64,000 nt of DNA from assembly GCF_050920415.1 (NCBI RefSeq), contig NZ_CP169309.1; one strand, given 5' to 3'. How positions within the stretch are numbered: position 1 is the stretch's first letter; each line of letters opens with the position of its first letter. The translations under genes and the position numbers were made by a program. Source of the DNA: Escherichia coli (lineage in GTDB: Bacteria > Pseudomonadota > Gammaproteobacteria > Enterobacterales > Enterobacteriaceae). Below, in pieces: positions 3,693 through 12,393 of this stretch. Under the pieces are notes generated by a model. That model made no database searches and was not told the origin of the DNA. It worked only from the letters and a program-made list of their open reading frames with translations.

Positions 3693-4547
3693 ATGATGAT
3701 CAATAAACAAAAATTAGTCAACCCTGAAAACTTGCCAGTTATTGAGTGGCAGGGAGTACGTGTAGTTACCACCGAAACGTTGGCGGCGGGATATGGAACA
3801 ACGCCAATCCGTATACAACAGAACTACATTCGAAACGAAGATCGTTTCGTTGAGGGTAAACACTTTTTCAAAATCAGCGGTGATGAGCTGAAATCTTTCC
3901 GACTATCTTTTAGCGAGTCGGTTAATAAACATACAACATCACTTGTCCTCTGGACAGAACGCGGCGCTGCCCGCATGTCAAAAATCGTCGATACAGACGA
4001 GGCCTGGTTGTTCTTCGAAAAAATGGAGCAGGCGTATTTTCGTAAAGCAACGCCTTCTTCAAACACTATTCCAGACTTTGACGATCCGATCGCTGCTGCT
4101 GAAGCGTGGATTGAAGCCAAAAAATCCGAACGCCTTGCTCTCGGGTATGCAGAGCGTCAGGCTCGCTACATCAGCAAACTCGAAAGCCATCTCGCCGATG
4201 GCATCACTCCTGTGCAGTTCTGCAAACAGCTCAACGGTGTAAACACTCGTCAGATTAATGCGTTCCTTGAAGAGCGTAACTGGCTGTATGACGACCGTCC
4301 GGAGGCTATGTATCCGCGCTGGCGTGTAAAAGCGTATGCACGTGACCAATACCTGACTGAGCGTTCTGGGCAGGTTGAGCAGGAAAACGGGGAAATGCGC
4401 GAGATTTTCAAACCACTCCTGAAGAAAAAAGGTGCCGCCTGGTTATATCGCCATTATCTGAACGGCGAACTACCTATGAAGAAAACATGGGATGGGCAAT
4501 TTACCCATAACACTGAGCTCGCGAATCTTTTACAGGAGAGCAAATGA
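3693..4547 (+). CDS. Antirepressor-type protein (ORF6N/KilA-N-like N-terminus, KilAC/Ant-like C-terminus)
   Basis: N-terminus: LPVIEWQGVRVVTTETLAAGYGT...RNEDRFVEGKHFFKISGDELKSF. C-terminus: AEAWIEAKKSERLAL...ITPVQFCKQLNG. AAGGGGA SD. Confidence 0.7.
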   Translation: MMINKQKLVNPENLPVIEWQGVRVVTTETLAAGYGTTPIRIQQNYIRNEDRFVEGKHFFKISGDELKSFRLSFSESVNKHTTSLVLWTERGAARMSKIVDTDEAWLFFEKMEQAYFRKATPSSNTIPDFDDPIAAAEAWIEAKKSERLALGYAERQARYISKLESHLADGITPVQFCKQLNGVNTRQINAFLEERNWLYDDRPEAMYPRWRVKAYARDQYLTERSGQVEQENGEMREIFKPLLKKKGAAWLYRHYLNGELPMKKTWDGQFTHNTELANLLQESK

Positions 4548-4756
4548 TGCAAACCAAGACATGTGTAACTGGTGATGTCGATCTGAAACCTTGCCCGTTC
4601 TGCGGAAATCCGGAAGTACAACTCATTGAGGTGAAATATTTTCTGGATGGCGATGATGGTTATTACGTCGCATGTACTTGCTGTAACGCAAACCAGATTC
4701 CTGATTCGAAAGAACGTGCTGTTCATGACTGGAACCAGCGCGAAAACGCGGATTGA
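4544..4756 (+). CDS. Lar-family restriction-alleviation-like zinc-ribbon protein
   Basis: 70 aa with CPFCG...C.CC and a C-terminal HDWNQR. Resembles the Lar family (Rac Lar), recalled from memory. Start overlaps the upstream stop (ATGA). Confidence 0.55.
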   Translation: MMQTKTCVTGDVDLKPCPFCGNPEVQLIEVKYFLDGDDGYYVACTCCNANQIPDSKERAVHDWNQRENAD

Positions 4757-4792
4757 CGGCGAGTAGGTACAAAATGATCCGCAACCAACATA

Positions 4793-4821
4793 TTGATTCT
4801 GCAATTTCGGGACGTTACACT
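4793..4821 (+). promoter_or_regulatory. Promoter of c4-like cassette A
   Basis: TTGATT (4793-4798), 17 nt, TACACT (4816-4821). Identical hexamers and spacing recur in cassette B, inside a 64-nt block conserved at the nucleotide level. Confidence 0.5.
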
Positions 4822-4934
4822 GTTCCTGCACCTTATAAAGCGGGTGCCGGGGGTCGCAGCCCGGAATTGCATACGGCGATATATGACGCGCCAGCGTCTT
4901 TTTTATCGTCCGCGCTCACGCACGCCAGAATTAT

Positions 4935-5013
4935 GGTGGGCTGGGCAGGGGAGCCGAAAGGCTCGCCGGTTTCCGTATGCGCCGGTACTGCGAACCCTGT
5001 TCAGTTCACCACC
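4935..5013 (+). ncRNA. c4-like antisense RNA, copy A (~79 nt)
   Basis: Terminal stem GGTGG/CCACC and inner stem CAGGG/CCCTG. Hairpin GAGCC-GAAA-GGCTC. Loop tccgtatgc (4972-4980) complements gcatacgga (5052-5060) over the Rha SD. ctgcgaa (4988-4994) complements ttcgcag (5021-5027). Confidence 0.6.
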
Positions 5014-5070
5014 CATGAGTTTCGCAGCTCCGGTGGTGGAAGTTATCCATTGCATACGGAGGCTGCCATC

Positions 5071-5433
5071 ATGGCTACAGTCCCAACTTCCCCATACCTG
5101 AAAATCGAAGTCGTCAACGGCAAAGCTGTTATTTTCTCCCTGCATGTTGCCTGCCACTTTAAGCGCATGCACCAGAACATCGTCGACAAAATCGAGTATC
5201 TGAACTGCTCGCGTGAATTCTTCTCCCGTAATTTCATACCGGGTACTTACCACGTGTATGGCGATTCCCTGCGTGGTTATTACATCACCCTTGATGGCCT
5301 GATGATGCTTCAGCTTGGGTTAAGTCTGCGCACAATGCGGTACTACGAGAGCTGTATTGAAGCATTCCATGAGGCTGAAACCAACCTGAATCACACTGTT
5401 TTCCGTCGTAATCAATGGGAGGTGCGCCCATGA
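5071..5433 (+). CDS. Rha-family phage regulatory/antirepressor protein, copy A (121 aa)
   Basis: GGAGG (5058-5062) lies 8 nt before the ATG at 5071. The pattern VNGKAV.FSL.VA..F.K.H..IV.KI is Phage_pRha-like. The upstream in-frame 106 codons are interpreted as the RNA leader. Confidence 0.7.
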   Translation: MATVPTSPYLKIEVVNGKAVIFSLHVACHFKRMHQNIVDKIEYLNCSREFFSRNFIPGTYHVYGDSLRGYYITLDGLMMLQLGLSLRTMRYYESCIEAFHEAETNLNHTVFRRNQWEVRP

Positions 5434-5445
5434 TTCGCCAACATA

Positions 5446-5474
5446 TTGATTCTGCACTTTTGGGACGTTACACT
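5446..5474 (+). promoter_or_regulatory. Promoter of c4-like cassette B
   Basis: TTGATT (5446-5451), 17 nt, TACACT (5469-5474). Same arrangement as cassette A. Confidence 0.5.
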
Positions 5475-5587
5475 GTCTCTGCACCTTATAAAGCGGGTGC
5501 CGGGATTGGCGTCCTGAAATTCAATATAGAGCATAACCGCGCTCATGCGGTTTTTTCGTGTCATGAGCATTGCTACGCCCAAATTAT

Positions 5588-5666
5588 GGTGGGGCGTGCA
5601 GGGGCATCGCAAGATGCGCCGGGTTCTATGTTGACCGGTTACGCCAACCCTGTACGTCTCACCACC
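5588..5666 (+). ncRNA. c4-like antisense RNA, copy B (~79 nt)
   Basis: Same scaffold as A (GGTGG/CCACC, CAGGG/CCCTG). The hairpin is changed compensatorily to GCATC-GCAA-GATGC. ctatgttga (5626-5634) complements tcaacatag (5704-5712). acgccaa (5641-5647) complements ttggcgt (5674-5680). Confidence 0.6.
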
Positions 5667-5723
5667 TCTGTGATTGGCGTCCCATGTGGTGAGTTCTTTG
5701 AATTCAACATAGGGGCTGTCACC

Positions 5724-6287
5724 ATGACTACTCTCCCAACCCTCTCTCAACCTGAAATTGCGATCGTTGATGGTCAGGCTGTTACATCTTCTTTGGCTGT
5801 TGCTGACTTCTTCTCTAAACGTCATGACGATGTTCTGAAAAAGATCCGCATTTTGGATTGTTCTCCAGAGTTTTGTGCCCGCAATTTTGCGGAGACATCA
5901 ATTTTGGTACACCAGCCCAACGGCGGTACTCGCAAACTTCCTTGCTACCACATCACCCGCGATGGCTTCGCGTTCCTGGCAATGGGCTTTACTGGCAAAC
6001 GTGCAGCCCGGTTCAAAGAGGCATACATCAACGCCTTTAACCAGATGGAGAAGAATTTATCTGGTGCTGACGCGGTTGATATGTCAGCTGTTGCACGAAA
6101 CGCCAGAGGCGTATACCTGCATTTGCGTGAAATCCATCAAATCTGGATAAGCCAGCTTTATCCAATGCTTAAGGCCGTTGAGTCACCGCTGGCTGGCAAA
6201 CTGTACGACCGTGTAGGTGATGCTGTTTTTGGTGCTGCACTTGTTGATTCCAGACTGAATGGTTCTGACAAGGAGGTGCGCCCATGA
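5724..6287 (+). CDS. Rha-family phage regulatory/antirepressor protein, copy B (187 aa)
   Basis: IVDGQAVTSSLAVADFFSKRHDDVLKKIRIL...ITRDGFAFLAMGFTGKRAARFKEAYINAFNQME is a typical Rha (Phage_pRha) domain. The ATG at 5724 follows an AGGGG SD. Confidence 0.8.
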   Translation: MTTLPTLSQPEIAIVDGQAVTSSLAVADFFSKRHDDVLKKIRILDCSPEFCARNFAETSILVHQPNGGTRKLPCYHITRDGFAFLAMGFTGKRAARFKEAYINAFNQMEKNLSGADAVDMSAVARNARGVYLHLREIHQIWISQLYPMLKAVESPLAGKLYDRVGDAVFGAALVDSRLNGSDKEVRP

Positions 6288-6517
6288 TCCGCCACATCGT
6301 TAATTCCCTGTATCACCGATACAACCGTTGCCCCCGGGTGGGGCAGTGGTTCACCACCAGCAACGGCCACGTTCTGCGGGTTTGCCTGGTCAATACAGAA
6401 AGCCAGAAGGTTGTCTGCCAGGTTCAGGGACGTACTCATACCCTGAGTTATCCGCTGGTGGCGTTTCAGTCCGGAAAAATGTTTAAACGCCTGGGAGGTG
6501 GCTATGCGTCCGTCTGA
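6284..6517 (+). CDS. Hypothetical 77-aa protein
   Basis: Starts at the third copy of the GGAGGTGCGCCCATGAT junction. Overlaps the O-like gene start. Confidence 0.45.
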   Translation: MIRHIVNSLYHRYNRCPRVGQWFTTSNGHVLRVCLVNTESQKVVCQVQGRTHTLSYPLVAFQSGKMFKRLGGGYASV

Positions 6518-7422: not shown

Positions 7423-8301
7423 ATGATGACGATTAACCAACGTGAGAAACAAACAAGACTACAGGCGCGAATGGATGAGTTACGGGCAGAGATTGCATTT
7501 GCTCAGAATGGCGAAAAGCCATGGCCTTACCGCGCCTGCCGGGAATCTGAAGGGGTTGGATGCTGCGAAAAACACGGTAAATATCGTACGCATATACTGG
7601 TGTGGGATGATCGGCAGGGGGGCGCTGTCTCAAAAATTTCCCGCTGTCCGGAGTGTCTGGTGGATGAAATGGATGTGACACATCGGACTCTGGTTGCAAT
7701 GAAAGCTGATGTGCTGATTGAGAATGCTGGTGTTGCCTGTAGGTTTCGCGACTGTGAGTTTGAAAACTATCAGGAGATTAACTCTGATGCAGCCAGAAAT
7801 CTTGCTGCCTGCCGCCGCTATGCAGAGAGCTGGGAGGATGTTCTGGCTAACGGTACCAGTCTTGTTCTGACAGGCAGTTGTGGTACCGGAAAAAATCATC
7901 TGGCTGTGGCTATGGCAAAACACATCATCCGTAACCATCTGGCCAGTGTGGAGATTACTGATGTGATGCGCCTTACCCGTGCTGTGAAAAACTGCTGGCG
8001 GAATGACAGCGAAAAAACAGCGGATGAAGTTATTGAGCATTATGCGTCATTGGATTTGCTGATCATCGACGAAGTCGGCGTTCAGTTTGGCAGCGCGGCT
8101 GAAATGGCTATTTTGCAGGAAATTATCAATGCCCGGTACGAAAGCATCCTGCCCACCATCCTGATCAGCAACCTTTCACCGGAAGAGTTGTGGGCGTTCA
8201 TCAGCCCCCGCATTGCCGACAGGATCACAGACGGGGGACGCAACTGGTTGTCGTTTAACTGGCCCAGCTATCGTGCGCATATTGGAGGTGTGGCTGCATG
8301 A
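7423..8301 (+). CDS. DnaC/IstB-like AAA+ helicase loader
   Basis: Walker A GSCGTGKNHLAVAMA and Walker B LLIIDEVG. N-terminal Cys-rich region. Start is uncertain (GTG 7414, ATG 7423 or 7426). Confidence 0.8.
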   Translation: MMTINQREKQTRLQARMDELRAEIAFAQNGEKPWPYRACRESEGVGCCEKHGKYRTHILVWDDRQGGAVSKISRCPECLVDEMDVTHRTLVAMKADVLIENAGVACRFRDCEFENYQEINSDAARNLAACRRYAESWEDVLANGTSLVLTGSCGTGKNHLAVAMAKHIIRNHLASVEITDVMRLTRAVKNCWRNDSEKTADEVIEHYASLDLLIIDEVGVQFGSAAEMAILQEIINARYESILPTILISNLSPEELWAFISPRIADRITDGGRNWLSFNWPSYRAHIGGVAA

Positions 8302-9689
8302 CCACTCCAGTATGGCGTAACGATGATCTGGAAGGCGCTGTCATTGGCGCGTTTTTTCTGCGTGGGGCAGATCATGAAGTGATGGATATTCTGGCCACAC
8401 TGCCAGCGGACGTTTTTTCTGTACGAGCGTATAGGGATATCTACACAGGCATCTGCCGACAGGCTCGTGTTTCAGGTGTGATTGATCCTGTGCTGCTGTG
8501 TAATGAAATGCCGGAACTTGCTCCGGTGATTACTGATACCGGGCGTAAAACCTGGGTGAAGTCTTCACTGGAGCACTATGTTGCAGCGTTGCGGCGCAAT
8601 GCTGCATTGCGTGATGCAGAAAAAACACTGAATGAGGCGCTGCAGAAATTACGTGATGCGCATACCTGTGAAGCAGCTGAAGATGTCCTGAAGGATGCGC
8701 AGAACATGATGGCTTCATTGTCGACGGAAAAGGGCATTATTCAGCCGATACATATTGATGATGTGCTTCCGGAGGTGGTTGAGCGTGTTGAATGCCGGAA
8801 TCAGGGACTGGAGAAATCCAGAACGTTGATGACCGGTATTGAGGAGCTGGACGCAAAGACAGGTGGCATGGAGCCCGGCGACCTGGTGTTCATTGCGGCT
8901 CGTCCGTCAATGGGCAAAACCGAACTGGCGCTGGATATCATCGACAAGGTGACTGAGCAGGGGCATGGTGTTCTTCTGTTCACAATGGAAATGGCGAACA
9001 TCCAGATTGGTGAACGCATGGTATCTGCGGCTGGAGGAATGCCGGTATCACGCCTGAAATCTGTCACTCACTTTGAAGATGAAGACTGGGCGCGTTTCTC
9101 ACAAGGGGTGGGACGGATGACCGGTCGCAATATCTGGATGGTGGACCAGGCGAATCTGACCATTGATGAGATATGCGCAACAACGAAACACCACCTGATT
9201 AAACATCCGGAAACGGCGCTGGTGGTGGTTGATTATCTCGGGCTGATAAAAACCCGGAGCACGGGGCGTCATGACCTTGCCGTGGGTGAAATCTCAAAGG
9301 GGCTTAAAGGCCTGGCAAAATCCGGTGGTTTTCCGTTGATTGCGCTGAGCCAGCTCTCCCGCGGTGTGGAGTCCAGGCCCAATAAACGCCCCATGAACTC
9401 AGACCTGAAAAATTCCGGAGAAATAGAGGCGGATGCAGACATCATTCTGATGCTTTACAGGGATGAAGTGTACAACCCGGATACGCAGGCCAGGGGCATC
9501 GCAGAAATCAATATCACGAAACAACGTAACGGTTCTCTGGGGACAATTTACCGGCGTTTTTATAACGGACATTTTCTGCCTGTAGACCAGGAAAGCGCAC
9601 AGGTTCTTTCCACCCCAATGCAGCCGCCTCAGCCGCGCAGATACAGCAATAAACGAACCGACAGTAGTAAGATGGAGCGTTTCTTTTGA
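8298..9689 (+). CDS. DnaB-family replicative DNA helicase
   Basis: GIEELDAKTGGMEPGDLVFIAARPSMGKTELAL, with downstream RecA-like motifs (ALSQLSR). 463 aa. Confidence 0.9.
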   Translation: MTTPVWRNDDLEGAVIGAFFLRGADHEVMDILATLPADVFSVRAYRDIYTGICRQARVSGVIDPVLLCNEMPELAPVITDTGRKTWVKSSLEHYVAALRRNAALRDAEKTLNEALQKLRDAHTCEAAEDVLKDAQNMMASLSTEKGIIQPIHIDDVLPEVVERVECRNQGLEKSRTLMTGIEELDAKTGGMEPGDLVFIAARPSMGKTELALDIIDKVTEQGHGVLLFTMEMANIQIGERMVSAAGGMPVSRLKSVTHFEDEDWARFSQGVGRMTGRNIWMVDQANLTIDEICATTKHHLIKHPETALVVVDYLGLIKTRSTGRHDLAVGEISKGLKGLAKSGGFPLIALSQLSRGVESRPNKRPMNSDLKNSGEIEADADIILMLYRDEVYNPDTQARGIAEINITKQRNGSLGTIYRRFYNGHFLPVDQESAQVLSTPMQPPQPRRYSNKRTDSSKMERFF

Positions 9690-9943
9690 ACAACCAGACA
9701 ATGACTTTTACCCCTGAACAATTACGCAAACAGGCGCAGGAAATGCTGCGACAGGCGGAACAACTGGAAAAATCAGGCGTAACAAAAGATGCCATTCGTC
9801 GGGATATGGTACCCGCGCTCAGAGAACTGATGCAGGCAAAACACCGCGCACAAAAAGCGGTGGATGAGCTGGTGGATTGTGTGGCAGAGCTGGAAACAAA
9901 AGTTGGAAAATTTGAAAAACTGGTGCAGGAGGTACTGCGCTGA
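9686..9943 (+). CDS. Hypothetical coiled-coil protein
   Basis: ORF packed between the helicase and the Q-like gene. Start is uncertain (TTG 9686 or ATG 9701). Confidence 0.45.
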
Positions 9944-10308
9944 TGCGTGATATTCAGATGGTTCTTGAGCGTTGGGGGGCGTGGGTGGCAAATAACCACG
10001 AAGATGTTACCTGGTCGTCGATTGCTGCGGGATTCAAAGGACTGATTCCGTCAAAGGTTAAGTCACGTCCGCAATGTTGTGACGATGACGCGATGATCAT
10101 TTGTGGTTGCATGGCTCGTCTGAAAAAGAACAACCGTGACTTGCATGATCTGCTCGTGGATTATTACGTTGGGGGAATGACTTTTATGGCGCTTGCAAGG
10201 AAACATGGACGTTCAGATTGCTGGGTTGGTCGTTTGTTGCAAAAAGCAGAGGGGATCGTGGCTGGTATGTTAATGATGTTGGATGTCAAACTAGAGATGG
10301 AATATTAA
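9943..10308 (+). CDS. Late-gene antiterminator, Q-like (small Phage_antitermQ type)
   Basis: Last gene of the early-right operon. RWGAWV....W and [10 protein letters not shown] resemble the ~120-aa antitermination protein Q family (from memory). Confidence 0.55.
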
Positions 10309-10475: not shown

Positions 10476-11663
10476 TTACTCCATGCTAAGTGAATCCTGA
10501 TAGCGCTTAAATGCCTCCGCGAAAGCTAGAGCAGCATCAGCATTTGATACCATGTATTCTTCTGTAATGCCTGTTTGGGACTGGAAATATAACTTTCCAT
10601 AAATGCAAATTGGGATTTGATAGTTATCTTTAAATCGTCGGTCTGGTGAGCCATCTTTATTTGTTTTTGCCCATGTATGCCCAGCTATGCTGGCATCACT
10701 CGGAACACCATCCTCTTCATGGAACCCTTGATGCTGCGCATTAATTTGTAATTCCCGTAAGTCAATCAGAGCAAATGCCCCATCGGGGCGAGGAATTACA
10801 GCAATACCCGGATAAAGCAATATATCGTCGCCATTGACATTTTCAAATCGCATTGCTCTTCCAGTAAAACGAATTAGATCTGTTGAAGCGAAATCAAATA
10901 CGACTGGATGACGATCAACTGCTCGTGTAGCTAACGTCCTTTCTGCAAACTGATCTATAGCTTTATCTGCGGTAATATCCCATTTTTTGATACTTGATTT
11001 TAAAATATCGAAAGCACGAATCATTGCTGCATAAGCCCGCTGTGAGGAATCGCTGGTTTCGAAATTAATGACGATTTTAGTGTTATCTTCCCAGGATACA
11101 AGACGAGATACTTCTGCTTGTATTTGTGGTAGCGTTGCTTCAAGTTCTGCAATGCGACGTTTATAAAACCATCGAAACAGGCTTGATTTACGTCGAGCCA
11201 ATTCACTCTTTTGTCTTGATTCTTCTGCAAGAGCCTCTTGTAAGTCAGATGCTATTTCCGCTCTTTGTTCTCGTGCTTTAACGATCAAGTCTCGTAAAGG
11301 TAAAAGAGATGTACTTGTCAAGGCCTCTACTGAGGCACTGGAGATTTCATTCATGCCTGTTTGTGGCATGTACATTTTTGCGTTTGATGGGGTGTTGTCT
11401 GAAATTAACTCGGGTGCATCAATATGAGATTCTACAGACGACGGATTTAGCTGAATGGTTGTGGATGGTTTGTCTTTGTATGGTAAACGAGGGGATGTAT
11501 ACGATAAACCAGATCCTGGTAACCCTAGAGTTGCTTTAATTCCTTTTTGGTTAACATTAACTGTGGCTCCGGGGACACCAAAACTTGCGCTTACCCCATG
11601 TTTACCGATGTTAAGGCGTACTCCGGGGAAAATGGTAAAAGTTTGTCTGAAGCGAAGAGACAT
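10476..11663 (-). CDS. DUF4236-like protein (395 aa), function unknown; reverse-oriented moron
   Basis: N-terminus: RFRQTFTIFPGVRLNIGKHGVSASFGVPGATVNVNQKGIKATLGLPGSGLSY (DUF4236 signature, from memory). Then a P/S linker, a coiled coil and an unknown C-terminal domain. AT-rich. Confidence 0.75.
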   Translation of the reverse strand: MSLRFRQTFTIFPGVRLNIGKHGVSASFGVPGATVNVNQKGIKATLGLPGSGLSYTSPRLPYKDKPSTTIQLNPSSVESHIDAPELISDNTPSNAKMYMPQTGMNEISSASVEALTSTSLLPLRDLIVKAREQRAEIASDLQEALAEESRQKSELARRKSSLFRWFYKRRIAELEATLPQIQAEVSRLVSWEDNTKIVINFETSDSSQRAYAAMIRAFDILKSSIKKWDITADKAIDQFAERTLATRAVDRHPVVFDFASTDLIRFTGRAMRFENVNGDDILLYPGIAVIPRPDGAFALIDLRELQINAQHQGFHEEDGVPSDASIAGHTWAKTNKDGSPDRRFKDNYQIPICIYGKLYFQSQTGITEEYMVSNADAALAFAEAFKRYQDSLSME

Positions 11664-11886: not shown

Positions 11887-11911
11887 AGAAAACCCCCAGC
11901 TAGGCTGGGGG
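11887..11911 (-). terminator. Intrinsic terminator, minus strand
   Basis: CCCCCAGC-cta-GCTGGGGG followed by TTTTCT on the minus strand. Back to back with the plus-strand terminator. Confidence 0.5.
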
Positions 11912-12037
11912 TTCCGGAAAGCTTTCAGCTTTGAGCCAGTTATTAAAACCCCTTTTGATTTGTTAAAACACCTTGCGGTCTGGCAACTTCTTAACTCACT
12001 TATTGTTTCCACCCATGTTTTTGGATACCTGCTGTAG

Positions 12038-12074: not shown

Positions 12075-12362
12075 ACAACGAATCCTTCTGATCTGCTTTT
12101 GCGGGGCTTTTTTGTATCCGCTCCATGCCCGGCGTATAAGCGGAGGTTGGTCAGTTTTCTAAAAATTGAAATACCTCACAATTCAGCCAGTTAATGGTTG
12201 TTTGTCTGGCGAAGAGTTTGTAAATAAAAAAACGCATGGTGAATCCCCCTAAGCGGCGGGGCGAATCAGCAGTCAGTTCTGGGATAATCGCGGGTTCGTA
12301 TGCTGATGCCGGACTCACCGGGAGGCACCCGGCACCATGCATCATGGTCATCCCCTTGTATG

Positions 12363-12389
12363 ATACCCCTCTCCGGAGGGGTATTTTTT
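12363..12389 (+). terminator. Intrinsic terminator
   Basis: ATACCCCTC-tccg-GAGGGGTAT followed by T6. Confidence 0.75.
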
Positions 12390-12393
12390 GGAT

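Follow-up and report, generated by a model that had tools for sequence, protein, structure and literature searches.

Why should a leader that looks like an RNA gene be free of stop codons in the frame of the protein gene behind it? The question is raised by two tandem genes for Rha-family phage regulators, Rha1 and Rha2, in a 64,000-nucleotide (nt) stretch of Escherichia coli DNA (GCF_050920415.1, contig NZ_CP169309.1). This stretch is hereafter called the window, and all positions refer to the whole of it. Each Rha gene follows a leader of about 300 nt that holds an isrK-type RNA and a C4 antisense RNA, and each leader is open in frame with its Rha gene. A preliminary description of the locus held that two stop-free leaders in a row were unlikely to be due to chance, and proposed that they yield N-terminally extended Rha proteins or that ribosome transit is part of a switch. 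Here, the leaders were compared with their relatives and with the immunity loci of P4, P1 and Gifsy-1. We consider it probable that each cassette is an antisense-RNA immunity module of the c4/CI type, built on the plan of P4 eta/kil, in which translation from upstream would escape the shut-off by C4.

Layout of the two cassettes

Direct reading of the window places ATGs at 4774, 5071, 5430, 5724 and 6284. Leader 1 (4774-5070) has 99 sense codons and leader 2 (5430-5723) has 98, with 0 stops in the Rha frame of either. In the remaining two plus-strand frames, leader 1 has 1 and 4 stops and leader 2 has 6 and 6. The ORFs (open reading frames) of 226 and 290 amino acids (aa) in the mechanical list of the window are these two leader-Rha frames, taken to the first possible start. 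The cassettes are composed of the following features.

4774..5433, plus strand: long ORF 1, 219 aa, eta-like, with a 99-codon 'Ash' leader in frame with Rha1; 0 stops; PF10554 at residues 15-107, Phage_pRha at residues 122-202
4793..4821, plus strand: putative internal promoter of cassette 1 (TTGATT, 17-nt spacer, TACACT), inside long ORF 1 and 6 nt upstream of the isrK 5' end, in a position homologous to the Gifsy-1 and P4 promoters
4828..4904, plus strand: isrK/c4-a1b1-type RNA 1, Rfam isrK 58.8 bits; a1 4854-4859, b1 4868-4876, intrinsic terminator 4885-4904
4929..5016, plus strand: C4 antisense RNA 1, Rfam C4 83.3 bits; orf45-type AUG 4933, loop b' 4970-4981, a' 4986-4994
5021..5062, plus strand: target sites of cassette 1, a2 5021-5027 and b2 5051-5062 (TGCATACGGAGG), from complementarity and three-way covariation
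5071..5433, plus strand: short form of Rha1, 120 aa, with the predicted C4-regulated start; Shine-Dalgarno sequence (SD) inside b2; Rha domain; third-position bias starts here
5430..6287, plus strand: long ORF 2, 285 aa, eta-like, with a 98-codon leader in frame with Rha2; 0 stops; PF10554 at residues 14-108, Phage_pRha at residues 119-208
5446..5474, plus strand: putative internal promoter of cassette 2 (TTGATT, 17-nt spacer, TACACT), kept in the leader alignment
5481..5557, plus strand: isrK/c4-a1b1-type RNA 2, Rfam isrK 61.9 bits; a1 5506-5512, b1 5521-5532, terminator 5535-5556
5582..5669, plus strand: C4 antisense RNA 2, Rfam C4 80.1 bits; AUG 5586, b' 5623-5634, a' 5639-5647
5674..5714, plus strand: target sites of cassette 2, a2 5674-5680 and b2 5704-5714 (TCAACATAGGG), b2 spanning the Rha2 SD
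5724..6287, plus strand: short form of Rha2, 187 aa, with a Pfam and TIGRFAM Rha domain

Both cassettes have the parts of a c4 immunity module, namely a scoring match to the C4 model (RF01695, gathering score 45), an upstream a1/b1 pair with a terminator, and downstream a2/b2 sites over the ribosome-binding site. All isrK and C4 matches exceed their gathering scores, and Rfam isrK overlaps the Rfam family c4-a1b1, which represents the upstream target sites of C4. The C4 loop b' is complementary to b1, which lies in isrK, and to b2, while the single-stranded a' is complementary to a1 and a2. The b2 sites end 8-9 nt before the short Rha ATG; that of cassette 1 includes the SD of Rha1 and ends 8 nt before its ATG. 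From this pairing of C4 with the SD, and from a layout like that of P1 immI, 5071 and 5724 are read as the RNA-regulated starts of the Rha genes. The putative promoter motif is kept in all aligned leaders.

The RNA pairing is borne out by variation among relatives. Ten b and six a specificities were found, which change jointly at all three sites and form 21 specificity classes. Cassette 1 has the b sequence GCATACGG and the a sequence CTGCGA, while cassette 2 has CAACATAG and ACGCCAA; since both elements differ, no cross-reaction is expected between the two cassettes of the window. The helices of C4 are 97% canonical over 26 unique sequences, compared with 31-46% for shifted controls, and 8 of 27 helix pairs have compensatory double changes. 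A hybrid cassette, L225 (11880-12270), joins a promoter, an isrK and a C4 5' half of the window type to another C4 3' half and another gene (MNTKPSIF...), with in-frame stops. This hybrid is evidence of recombination within the RNA module itself.

Conservation of the open Rha frame

Leaders 1 and 2 are homologous, with 67% identity and one 3-nt indel. They are therefore not two independent trials, and alone they prove little. Relatives were gathered by an 18-nt DNA word in isrK and not by ORF, to avoid bias toward open frames. The first sample, from IMG/VR, consists of 115 cassettes that could be analysed, with 71 unique leader sequences whose pairwise identity has a median of 70%. The second, independent sample was taken from metagenome contigs and has 119 true cassettes; the pooled set consists of 108 unique leaders. 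In 115 of 115 IMG/VR cassettes, the Rha ATG is 234, 237 or 240 nt from the anchor, and the Rha frame is stop-free from the -35 region to this ATG. The other frames average 1.9 and 5.0 stops. Counted as distinct alignment sites with stops, the 71 IMG/VR leaders have 0 in the Rha frame and 18 and 16 in the others. The same is seen in the upstream part, which comprises the promoter and isrK (0 versus 7 and 8), and in the downstream part, from C4 to Rha (0 versus 11 and 8). In the metagenome replicate, the Rha frame is open in 116 of 119 cassettes. Among the three closed cassettes, L206 is of low coverage with evident errors, L277 has several 1-nt deletions, and L203 has a downstream gene of the Icd type.

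For the pooled leaders, the stop sites number 0 in the Rha frame and 18 and 17 in the others. The single substitutions able to create a stop are similar in number in the three frames (28, 31 and 38, respectively), so that about 29% of the stop sites would be expected in the Rha frame, and 0 of 35 were seen. Under neutrality this is very unlikely, even with sites that are not fully independent. Furthermore, all leader indels preserve the frame: they consist of three independent 3-nt events and of one 1-nt/2-nt pair that restores it. Mononucleotide shuffles of the leaders are stop-free in 2% of cases. A gene on the opposite strand was also considered and set aside, as the minus-strand frame that is open in leader 2 is not kept among the relatives.

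The sequence upstream of the -35 element varies by genomic context and falls into 13 clusters. An ATG in the Rha frame is found within 16 codons before the -35 element in 8 of these 13 contexts, mostly at the same position, compared with 1 of 13 for the second frame and 0 of 13 for the third. A GTG takes this position in 3 further contexts. In the window, ATG 5430 overlaps the TGA of Rha1 and has GGAGG 7 nt upstream.

Could the open frame be without function, inherited from a common ancestor and favoured by a G+C-rich structured RNA, with gene callers fusing it to Rha? The homology of the window leaders agrees with this, one other frame is stop-free in 22-29% of leaders, frameshift variants exist, and in-frame stops are common in the wider c4 family. 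However, the absence of stop sites despite similar mutational targets, in leaders of only 70% median identity whose indels all keep the frame and whose upstream ATG is kept in frame, was replicated in an independent collection gathered by DNA word. We regard this explanation as improbable, and the claim of the preliminary description that chance does not account for the stop-free leaders holds on the two samples.

A second possibility is that only the distal part is translated, with ribosomes starting at the C4 AUG (4933 or 5586) and reading into Rha, and that the openness further upstream is incidental. The C4 AUG is conserved with its 138-nt in-frame spacing, orf45 of Gifsy-1 is experimentally translated from the corresponding AUG, and one frameshift variant, L315, keeps the distal part in frame while its upstream part is shifted. 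However, the upstream segment taken by itself has no stop site against 7 and 8 in the other frames of the 71 leaders, one 3-nt indel falls within it, and an in-frame ATG is kept upstream of the promoter. In P4, the long upstream frame, eta, is also reported as functional in the published passages cited below. Translation restricted to the distal part thus seems unlikely to us. The C4 AUG might still serve in another way. The in-frame starts of cassette 1 are 4774, 4933 and 5071, and a third Rha form, with a 46-codon extension from the C4 AUG (4933-5070 and 5586-5723; 138 nt in frame), could possibly be made from internal-promoter transcripts.

A further open stretch was observed in L001 (about 5060-5426, minus strand) and in 55 other YdaT/Rac-like cassettes of IMG/VR. 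These have about 124 extra codons upstream (MNSLTANNRLSQQ...), open in the same frame, beginning at an ATGA overlap with an upstream 230-aa gene; stops in the other frames number about 10.6 and 4.1. Variability is highest at codon position 2, most copies are about 98% identical, and the stretch has no Pfam or Rfam match. It may be coding, antisense to a gene, or another spacer that is kept open.

The variability of the leaders does not follow codon positions. Expressed as entropy, it is 0.50/0.51/0.48 at the three positions before the C4 AUG and 0.63/0.61/0.64 after it, while the first 90 Rha codons of the same cassettes have the usual coding pattern (0.94/0.72/1.24). With flat codon positions and RNA-compensatory changes, it follows that the peptide is not conserved, only its translatability. 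As read from these alignments, selection acts on the absence of stops, the keeping of the frame and the presence of a start, and not on the amino acids. The preliminary description had suggested looking for substitutions that are either silent-biased or structure-preserving; they preserve structure, and there is no silent bias.

The leader translations match the full length of the Pfam model PF10554 (Phage_ASH), with E-values of 2e-17 and 2.5e-12 and scores of 63.9 and 47.6 bits against a cut-off of 26. The Prokaryotic Genome Annotation Pipeline (PGAP) names the full ORFs 'ash family protein', and Rha proteins of Shiga toxin (Stx) phages have been described with an Ash domain of unknown function (PMC8951638). 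On this basis, Ash could be a genuine folded protein domain that acts with Rha, and which the RNA elements merely overlap. The model score agrees with such a domain; residue selection and predicted fold do not. The third-position bias is absent, and the RNA-compensatory changes alter the peptide freely. For residues 1-108, an AlphaFold model of the 219-aa ORF shows no secondary structure and a predicted local distance difference test (pLDDT) below 50, although the model is weak over the whole chain (for the Rha part, the alignment is shallow) and thus argues only weakly for an unstructured Ash. Moreover, the Pfam family matches the old 'cI' ORF of P4, whose product is an RNA. We consider a folded Ash domain very improbable. 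In the Rha/Ash proteins that match PF10554, the 'domain', as it appears in the window, evolves under RNA constraint and not under protein constraint.

The P4 entry deserves a separate description. In the P4 genome (L132, NC_001609), RefSeq still lists a transcriptional repressor protein, the 'cI gene product (AA 1-137)', for the minus-strand ORF at 8168-8584. This ORF belongs to the eta frame, contains the CI RNA, with an Rfam C4 match at 8420-8507, and matches PF10554, so that the Pfam family has the appearance of a translated RNA locus. From these sequence comparisons, we read the 'Ash domain' as a translatable RNA immunity module, consisting of isrK and C4, rather than as a protein domain.

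Comparison with P4, P1 and Gifsy-1

The locus that most resembles the window cassettes is eta/kil of P4. The long ORF begins at the stop of the upstream gene in both (GCATGATGATG in P4, CCCATGAT in the window), and in the P4 sequence three ATGs of the frame (8767, 8764 and 8761) overlap the ORF88 stop. From there, the P4 frame is open through the promoter and the isrK/seqA and C4/CI matches to the kil ATG at 8365, and the window leaders are open likewise. The context of the kil ATG (GGAGGCTGCCATCATGGCTAC) is identical in cassette 1 and differs at a few positions in cassette 2. From the C4 AUG to the regulated ATG downstream there are 138 nt in P4 and in both cassettes, the SD of the regulated ORF is within the b2/seqC site, and the leader translation matches the same Pfam model. 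In the window, as in P4, a long ORF thus starts at or near an upstream stop and runs in frame and stop-free to a short regulated ORF. There are also differences. The regulated gene is a 65-aa Kil/Icd-like ORF in P4 and a Rha-family regulator of 120 or 187 aa in the window. The upstream promoter is the late promoter PLL in P4, and presumably PR in the window, which holds a phiP27-like lambdoid prophage. Finally, the window has two tandem cassettes of different RNA specificity.

For P4, the work of Forti et al. (1999) reportedly found premature termination in eta nonsense mutants, and read-through again once the mutations were suppressed. Passages of PMC10111431, citing Forti 1999, describe a constitutive promoter lying within eta, whose transcript is terminated through CI and seqA interactions and processed to CI RNA. 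They also state that full-length Eta is made only from the upstream promoter, and that eta translation prevents premature termination. According to the same passages (PMC10111431), Kil is translatable on read-through, and C4 and isrK matches occur inside Bro-network genes of phage-inducible chromosomal islands. That the P4 immunity factor is an RNA is also stated in a passage of PMC4825925.

On this pattern, the cassettes of the window may work as follows. An internal constitutive promoter (about 4793-4821 and 5446-5474) would give a transcript without the upstream ATG. This would yield a short IsrK-like RNA, ended at its own terminator, and, by read-through, the C4 RNA. The elements b' and a' of C4 would pair with b2 and a2 and cover the SD of the short Rha start (5071 or 5724), so that Rha would not be translated; the untranslated Rha message would be terminated, by analogy with P1 and P4. 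Transcripts that come from upstream, either from PR after induction or from the preceding cassette, would carry ATG 4774 or 5430, coupled to the stop of the previous gene. Ribosomes starting there would read in frame across the promoter, the IsrK terminator, C4 and b2 into Rha, and would keep the RNA unfolded and covered. Such a transcript would reach the next cassette and the genes for O, DnaC, DnaB and Q despite C4. The extended Rha, of 219 or 285 aa, would be a by-product or a second isoform.

The anatomy of the cassettes, the RNA pairing, the conservation of the frame and the homology to P4 are read from sequence, while by analogy with P4 we propose that the internal promoter is active, that translation begins at 4774 and 5430, and that it counters termination. 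The suggestion of extended Rha proteins, or of ribosome transit within the switch, thus gains from the same nested layout in a homologous locus, with translation in this phage presumed from P4.

P1 had been named for comparison in the preliminary description, either through its Ant1/Ant2 pair or through the coupling role of icd. The immI locus of P1/P7 shares the C4 family and the order a1 b1, c4, a2 b2, where b2 sits at the ribosome-binding site of the ORF that follows. However, P1 lacks a long leader ORF and carries an in-frame stop 36 nt before icd, unlike the open leaders of the window. Coupling in P1 goes through the separate small gene icd, and Ant1/Ant2 are in-frame starts within ant and not a leader fusion. 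The annotation of P1 notes that translation of the first ORF is needed for downstream expression, and the mechanism of icd coupling was reportedly treated by Biere, Citron and Schuster in 1992. In the window, two or three in-frame starts exist, as an isoform pair of the Ant1/Ant2 type would have, with an extension that is RNA-constrained and has no sign of protein selection. The P1 comparisons were set aside because of the stop in the P1 leader, and P4 eta/kil takes their place as the best analogue.

The isrK-orf45-anrP locus of Gifsy-1 also shares isrK and C4-like RNAs with the window. Passages of PMC4825925 state that orf45, whose frame runs through C4, is translated, that ribosome elongation through it is needed for the translation of anrP, and that its nucleotide sequence is conserved while its peptide is variable. 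However, the frame of orf45, which begins at the C4 AUG, differs from that of anrP and closes at an AUGA overlap, whereas the window frame is continuous with Rha. Gifsy-1 has an in-frame stop 30 nt upstream of anrP, and its locus is found after Q instead of within the early operon.

In the wider c4 family, such stops are common. They are located 12-114 nt upstream of the regulated gene in P1, Gifsy-1, VT2-Sakai, P88, phiV10, phi315, PhiR26_1, PhiR12_2 and a Yersinia phage. A scan of one genome per species of GTDB gave about 40 analysable loci, most of which have a stop 9-190 nt upstream and only five or six of which are open throughout the leader. The RNA structure therefore does not force openness, which makes its strict upkeep in one lineage informative. 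As judged from these sequences, openness is a trait of this lineage and not of the c4 family in general. The preliminary description had taken stops in homologous cassettes as the refuting case: none was seen in the 108 unique leaders of this lineage, and they are common in the wider family.

Several observations weigh against the proposed mechanism. Two contexts, cassette 1 of L037 and L073, have no nearby in-frame start, and in both the upstream gene is divergent; one common context (MIISRPN) has no evident SD at its in-frame ATG. In the window, the SD of ATG 4774 is weak, and 17 nt separate this ATG from the stop of the upstream Lar-like gene. A consensus promoter scan missed the internal promoter, which matches only 8 of 12 consensus positions and is therefore assigned by homology of position. 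VT2-Sakai-type cassettes occur in an N-dependent PR operon without an open frame, so that openness is not obligatory for embedding in an operon. Openness may matter mainly where no other anti-termination exists. Sorting the GTDB loci by the orientation of the upstream gene gave no clean answer as to whether openness goes with operon embedding. Finally, a -1 frameshift variant exists at the terminator T-run, in L315, and the matching protein cluster has 17 members.

In that cassette (L315, 1095-1101; Logan assembly SRR9899137), the T-run of the IsrK terminator is 5 long, one short of the usual 6; the upstream leader is out of frame and the part from C4 to the gene is in frame. In view of the 17-member cluster, the variant may be genuine rather than an artefact of assembly. 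When the leader peptide was searched against proteins, it gave 38 matches, mostly partial and unusable for counting Ash fusions; it showed frameshift variants and one Ash/Icd-like fusion.

Junctions, tandem arrays and the surrounding prophage

The two cassettes are joined to each other and to the downstream gene by an identical sequence. The 17-mer GGAGGTGCGCCCATGAT is found in the window only at 5418 and 6272, and in both cases its ATG overlaps the TGA of the ORF before it. The junctions and the genes on either side of the cassettes are as follows.

4544..4756, plus strand: Lar-like gene, the upstream neighbour; Pfam Lar_restr_allev, E-value 4.8e-11; its stop is 17 nt from ATG 4774
5418..5434, plus strand: junction 1, GGAGGTGCGCCC-ATGA-T, where long ORF 2 has its SD and start and Rha1 its overlapping stop
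6272..6288, plus strand: junction 2, the identical 17-mer, where orf77 has its SD and start and Rha2 its overlapping stop
6284..6517, plus strand: orf77 (MIRHIVNSL...), the usual downstream partner of Rha, whose homologues come after Rha in most loci

The three ORFs that begin at ATG 4774 and at the junctions start with MIRNQ, MIRQH and MIRHI, respectively. The codon counts from the leader ATGs, the shared SD context, the MIR starts and the stop overlaps of the preliminary description are all exact in the sequence. Among relatives, the junction and its close variants end Rha genes of 120, 183 and 187 aa that have differing bodies upstream, and a more divergent SD-ATGA overlap (GAGGTAAGGGGGCGCAAATGA) ends a class of 181-aa Rha genes. 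The junction is followed by an orf77-type gene (MIRHIVNSL, MIRRVVNSL or MIRNIFKRF), by another gene (MISYEIIIS), or by the next leader (MIRHQHIDS or MIRQHIDSA). The junction is therefore a translational-coupling site for whatever lies downstream.

Roughly 1,600 E. coli genomes carry such cassettes. Arrays of two and three cassettes are common, with a spacing of 653-869 bp. In tandem arrays, the leader start consists of the SD and ATG of the normal downstream gene, which is orf77 in the window. The L039 leader, for example, begins MIRNIFKLFTNRHQHIDS, and one array keeps the first 12 codons of the downstream gene, MIRNIFKLFTNR, before HQHIDS. The idea that the repeated junction is a recombination seam agrees with its presence at Rha genes of 120, 183 and 187 aa with different downstream partners. 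Judged by this sequence pattern, it is a short conserved boundary at which cassettes were exchanged and duplicated. Three tandem cassettes, with long ORFs overlapping by ATGA, were observed at 845-3017 of L193 (E. coli O121, NZ_CP119441), where PGAP names two 'ash family protein' and one 'Rha family phage regulatory protein'; L016 and L205 likewise have three.

The prophage of the window is phiP27-like. Its gene order is cI, cro, an ORF6N/KilAC antirepressor gene, Lar, the two cassettes, orf77, an O-like gene, DnaC, DnaB, a Q-like gene and the lysis genes, and the ORF list shows tight coupling of ORFs from the antirepressor gene (ant) through DnaB. The Q-like gene (9943-10308) is labelled by sequence resemblance only. 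No N gene is evident in the window or in the annotation of phiP27. Two Rfam matches on the plus strand, STnc490 (11891-12005, 72 bits) and STnc100 (12205-12393, 114 bits), are located between the Q-like gene and the lysis genes, which begin at about 12815. The minus strand has a 395-aa ORF (10476-11663) that lies between the Q-like gene and the late region; it might be a moron or accessory gene.

What is known is the eta/kil/cI design of P4; as far as the sequences tell, what is added here is its lambdoid, Rha-linked and tandem version. The finding accounts for a puzzle of the databases, namely why Rha proteins from lambdoid phages, Stx phages among them, carry PF10554. It speaks against labelling such N-terminal regions protein domains in annotations, and in favour of recording both starts and the embedded RNAs. 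It would also carry the P4 eta/kil principle over to lambdoid prophages, with cassettes that lie directly upstream of replication genes and can be stacked with different specificities. We put forward as speculation, doubtful as it stands, that tandem orthogonal cassettes discriminate transcripts by their promoter of origin in the replication operon of N-less phiP27-like prophages, including Stx-related ones, and that long Ash-Rha forms made only from PR differ in activity or stability, as a lytic-specific isoform switch. If this were true, the widespread 'Ash domain' would serve in general to place RNA immunity cassettes within essential operons. In Stx-related phages, the finding would bear on the gating of induction and replication.

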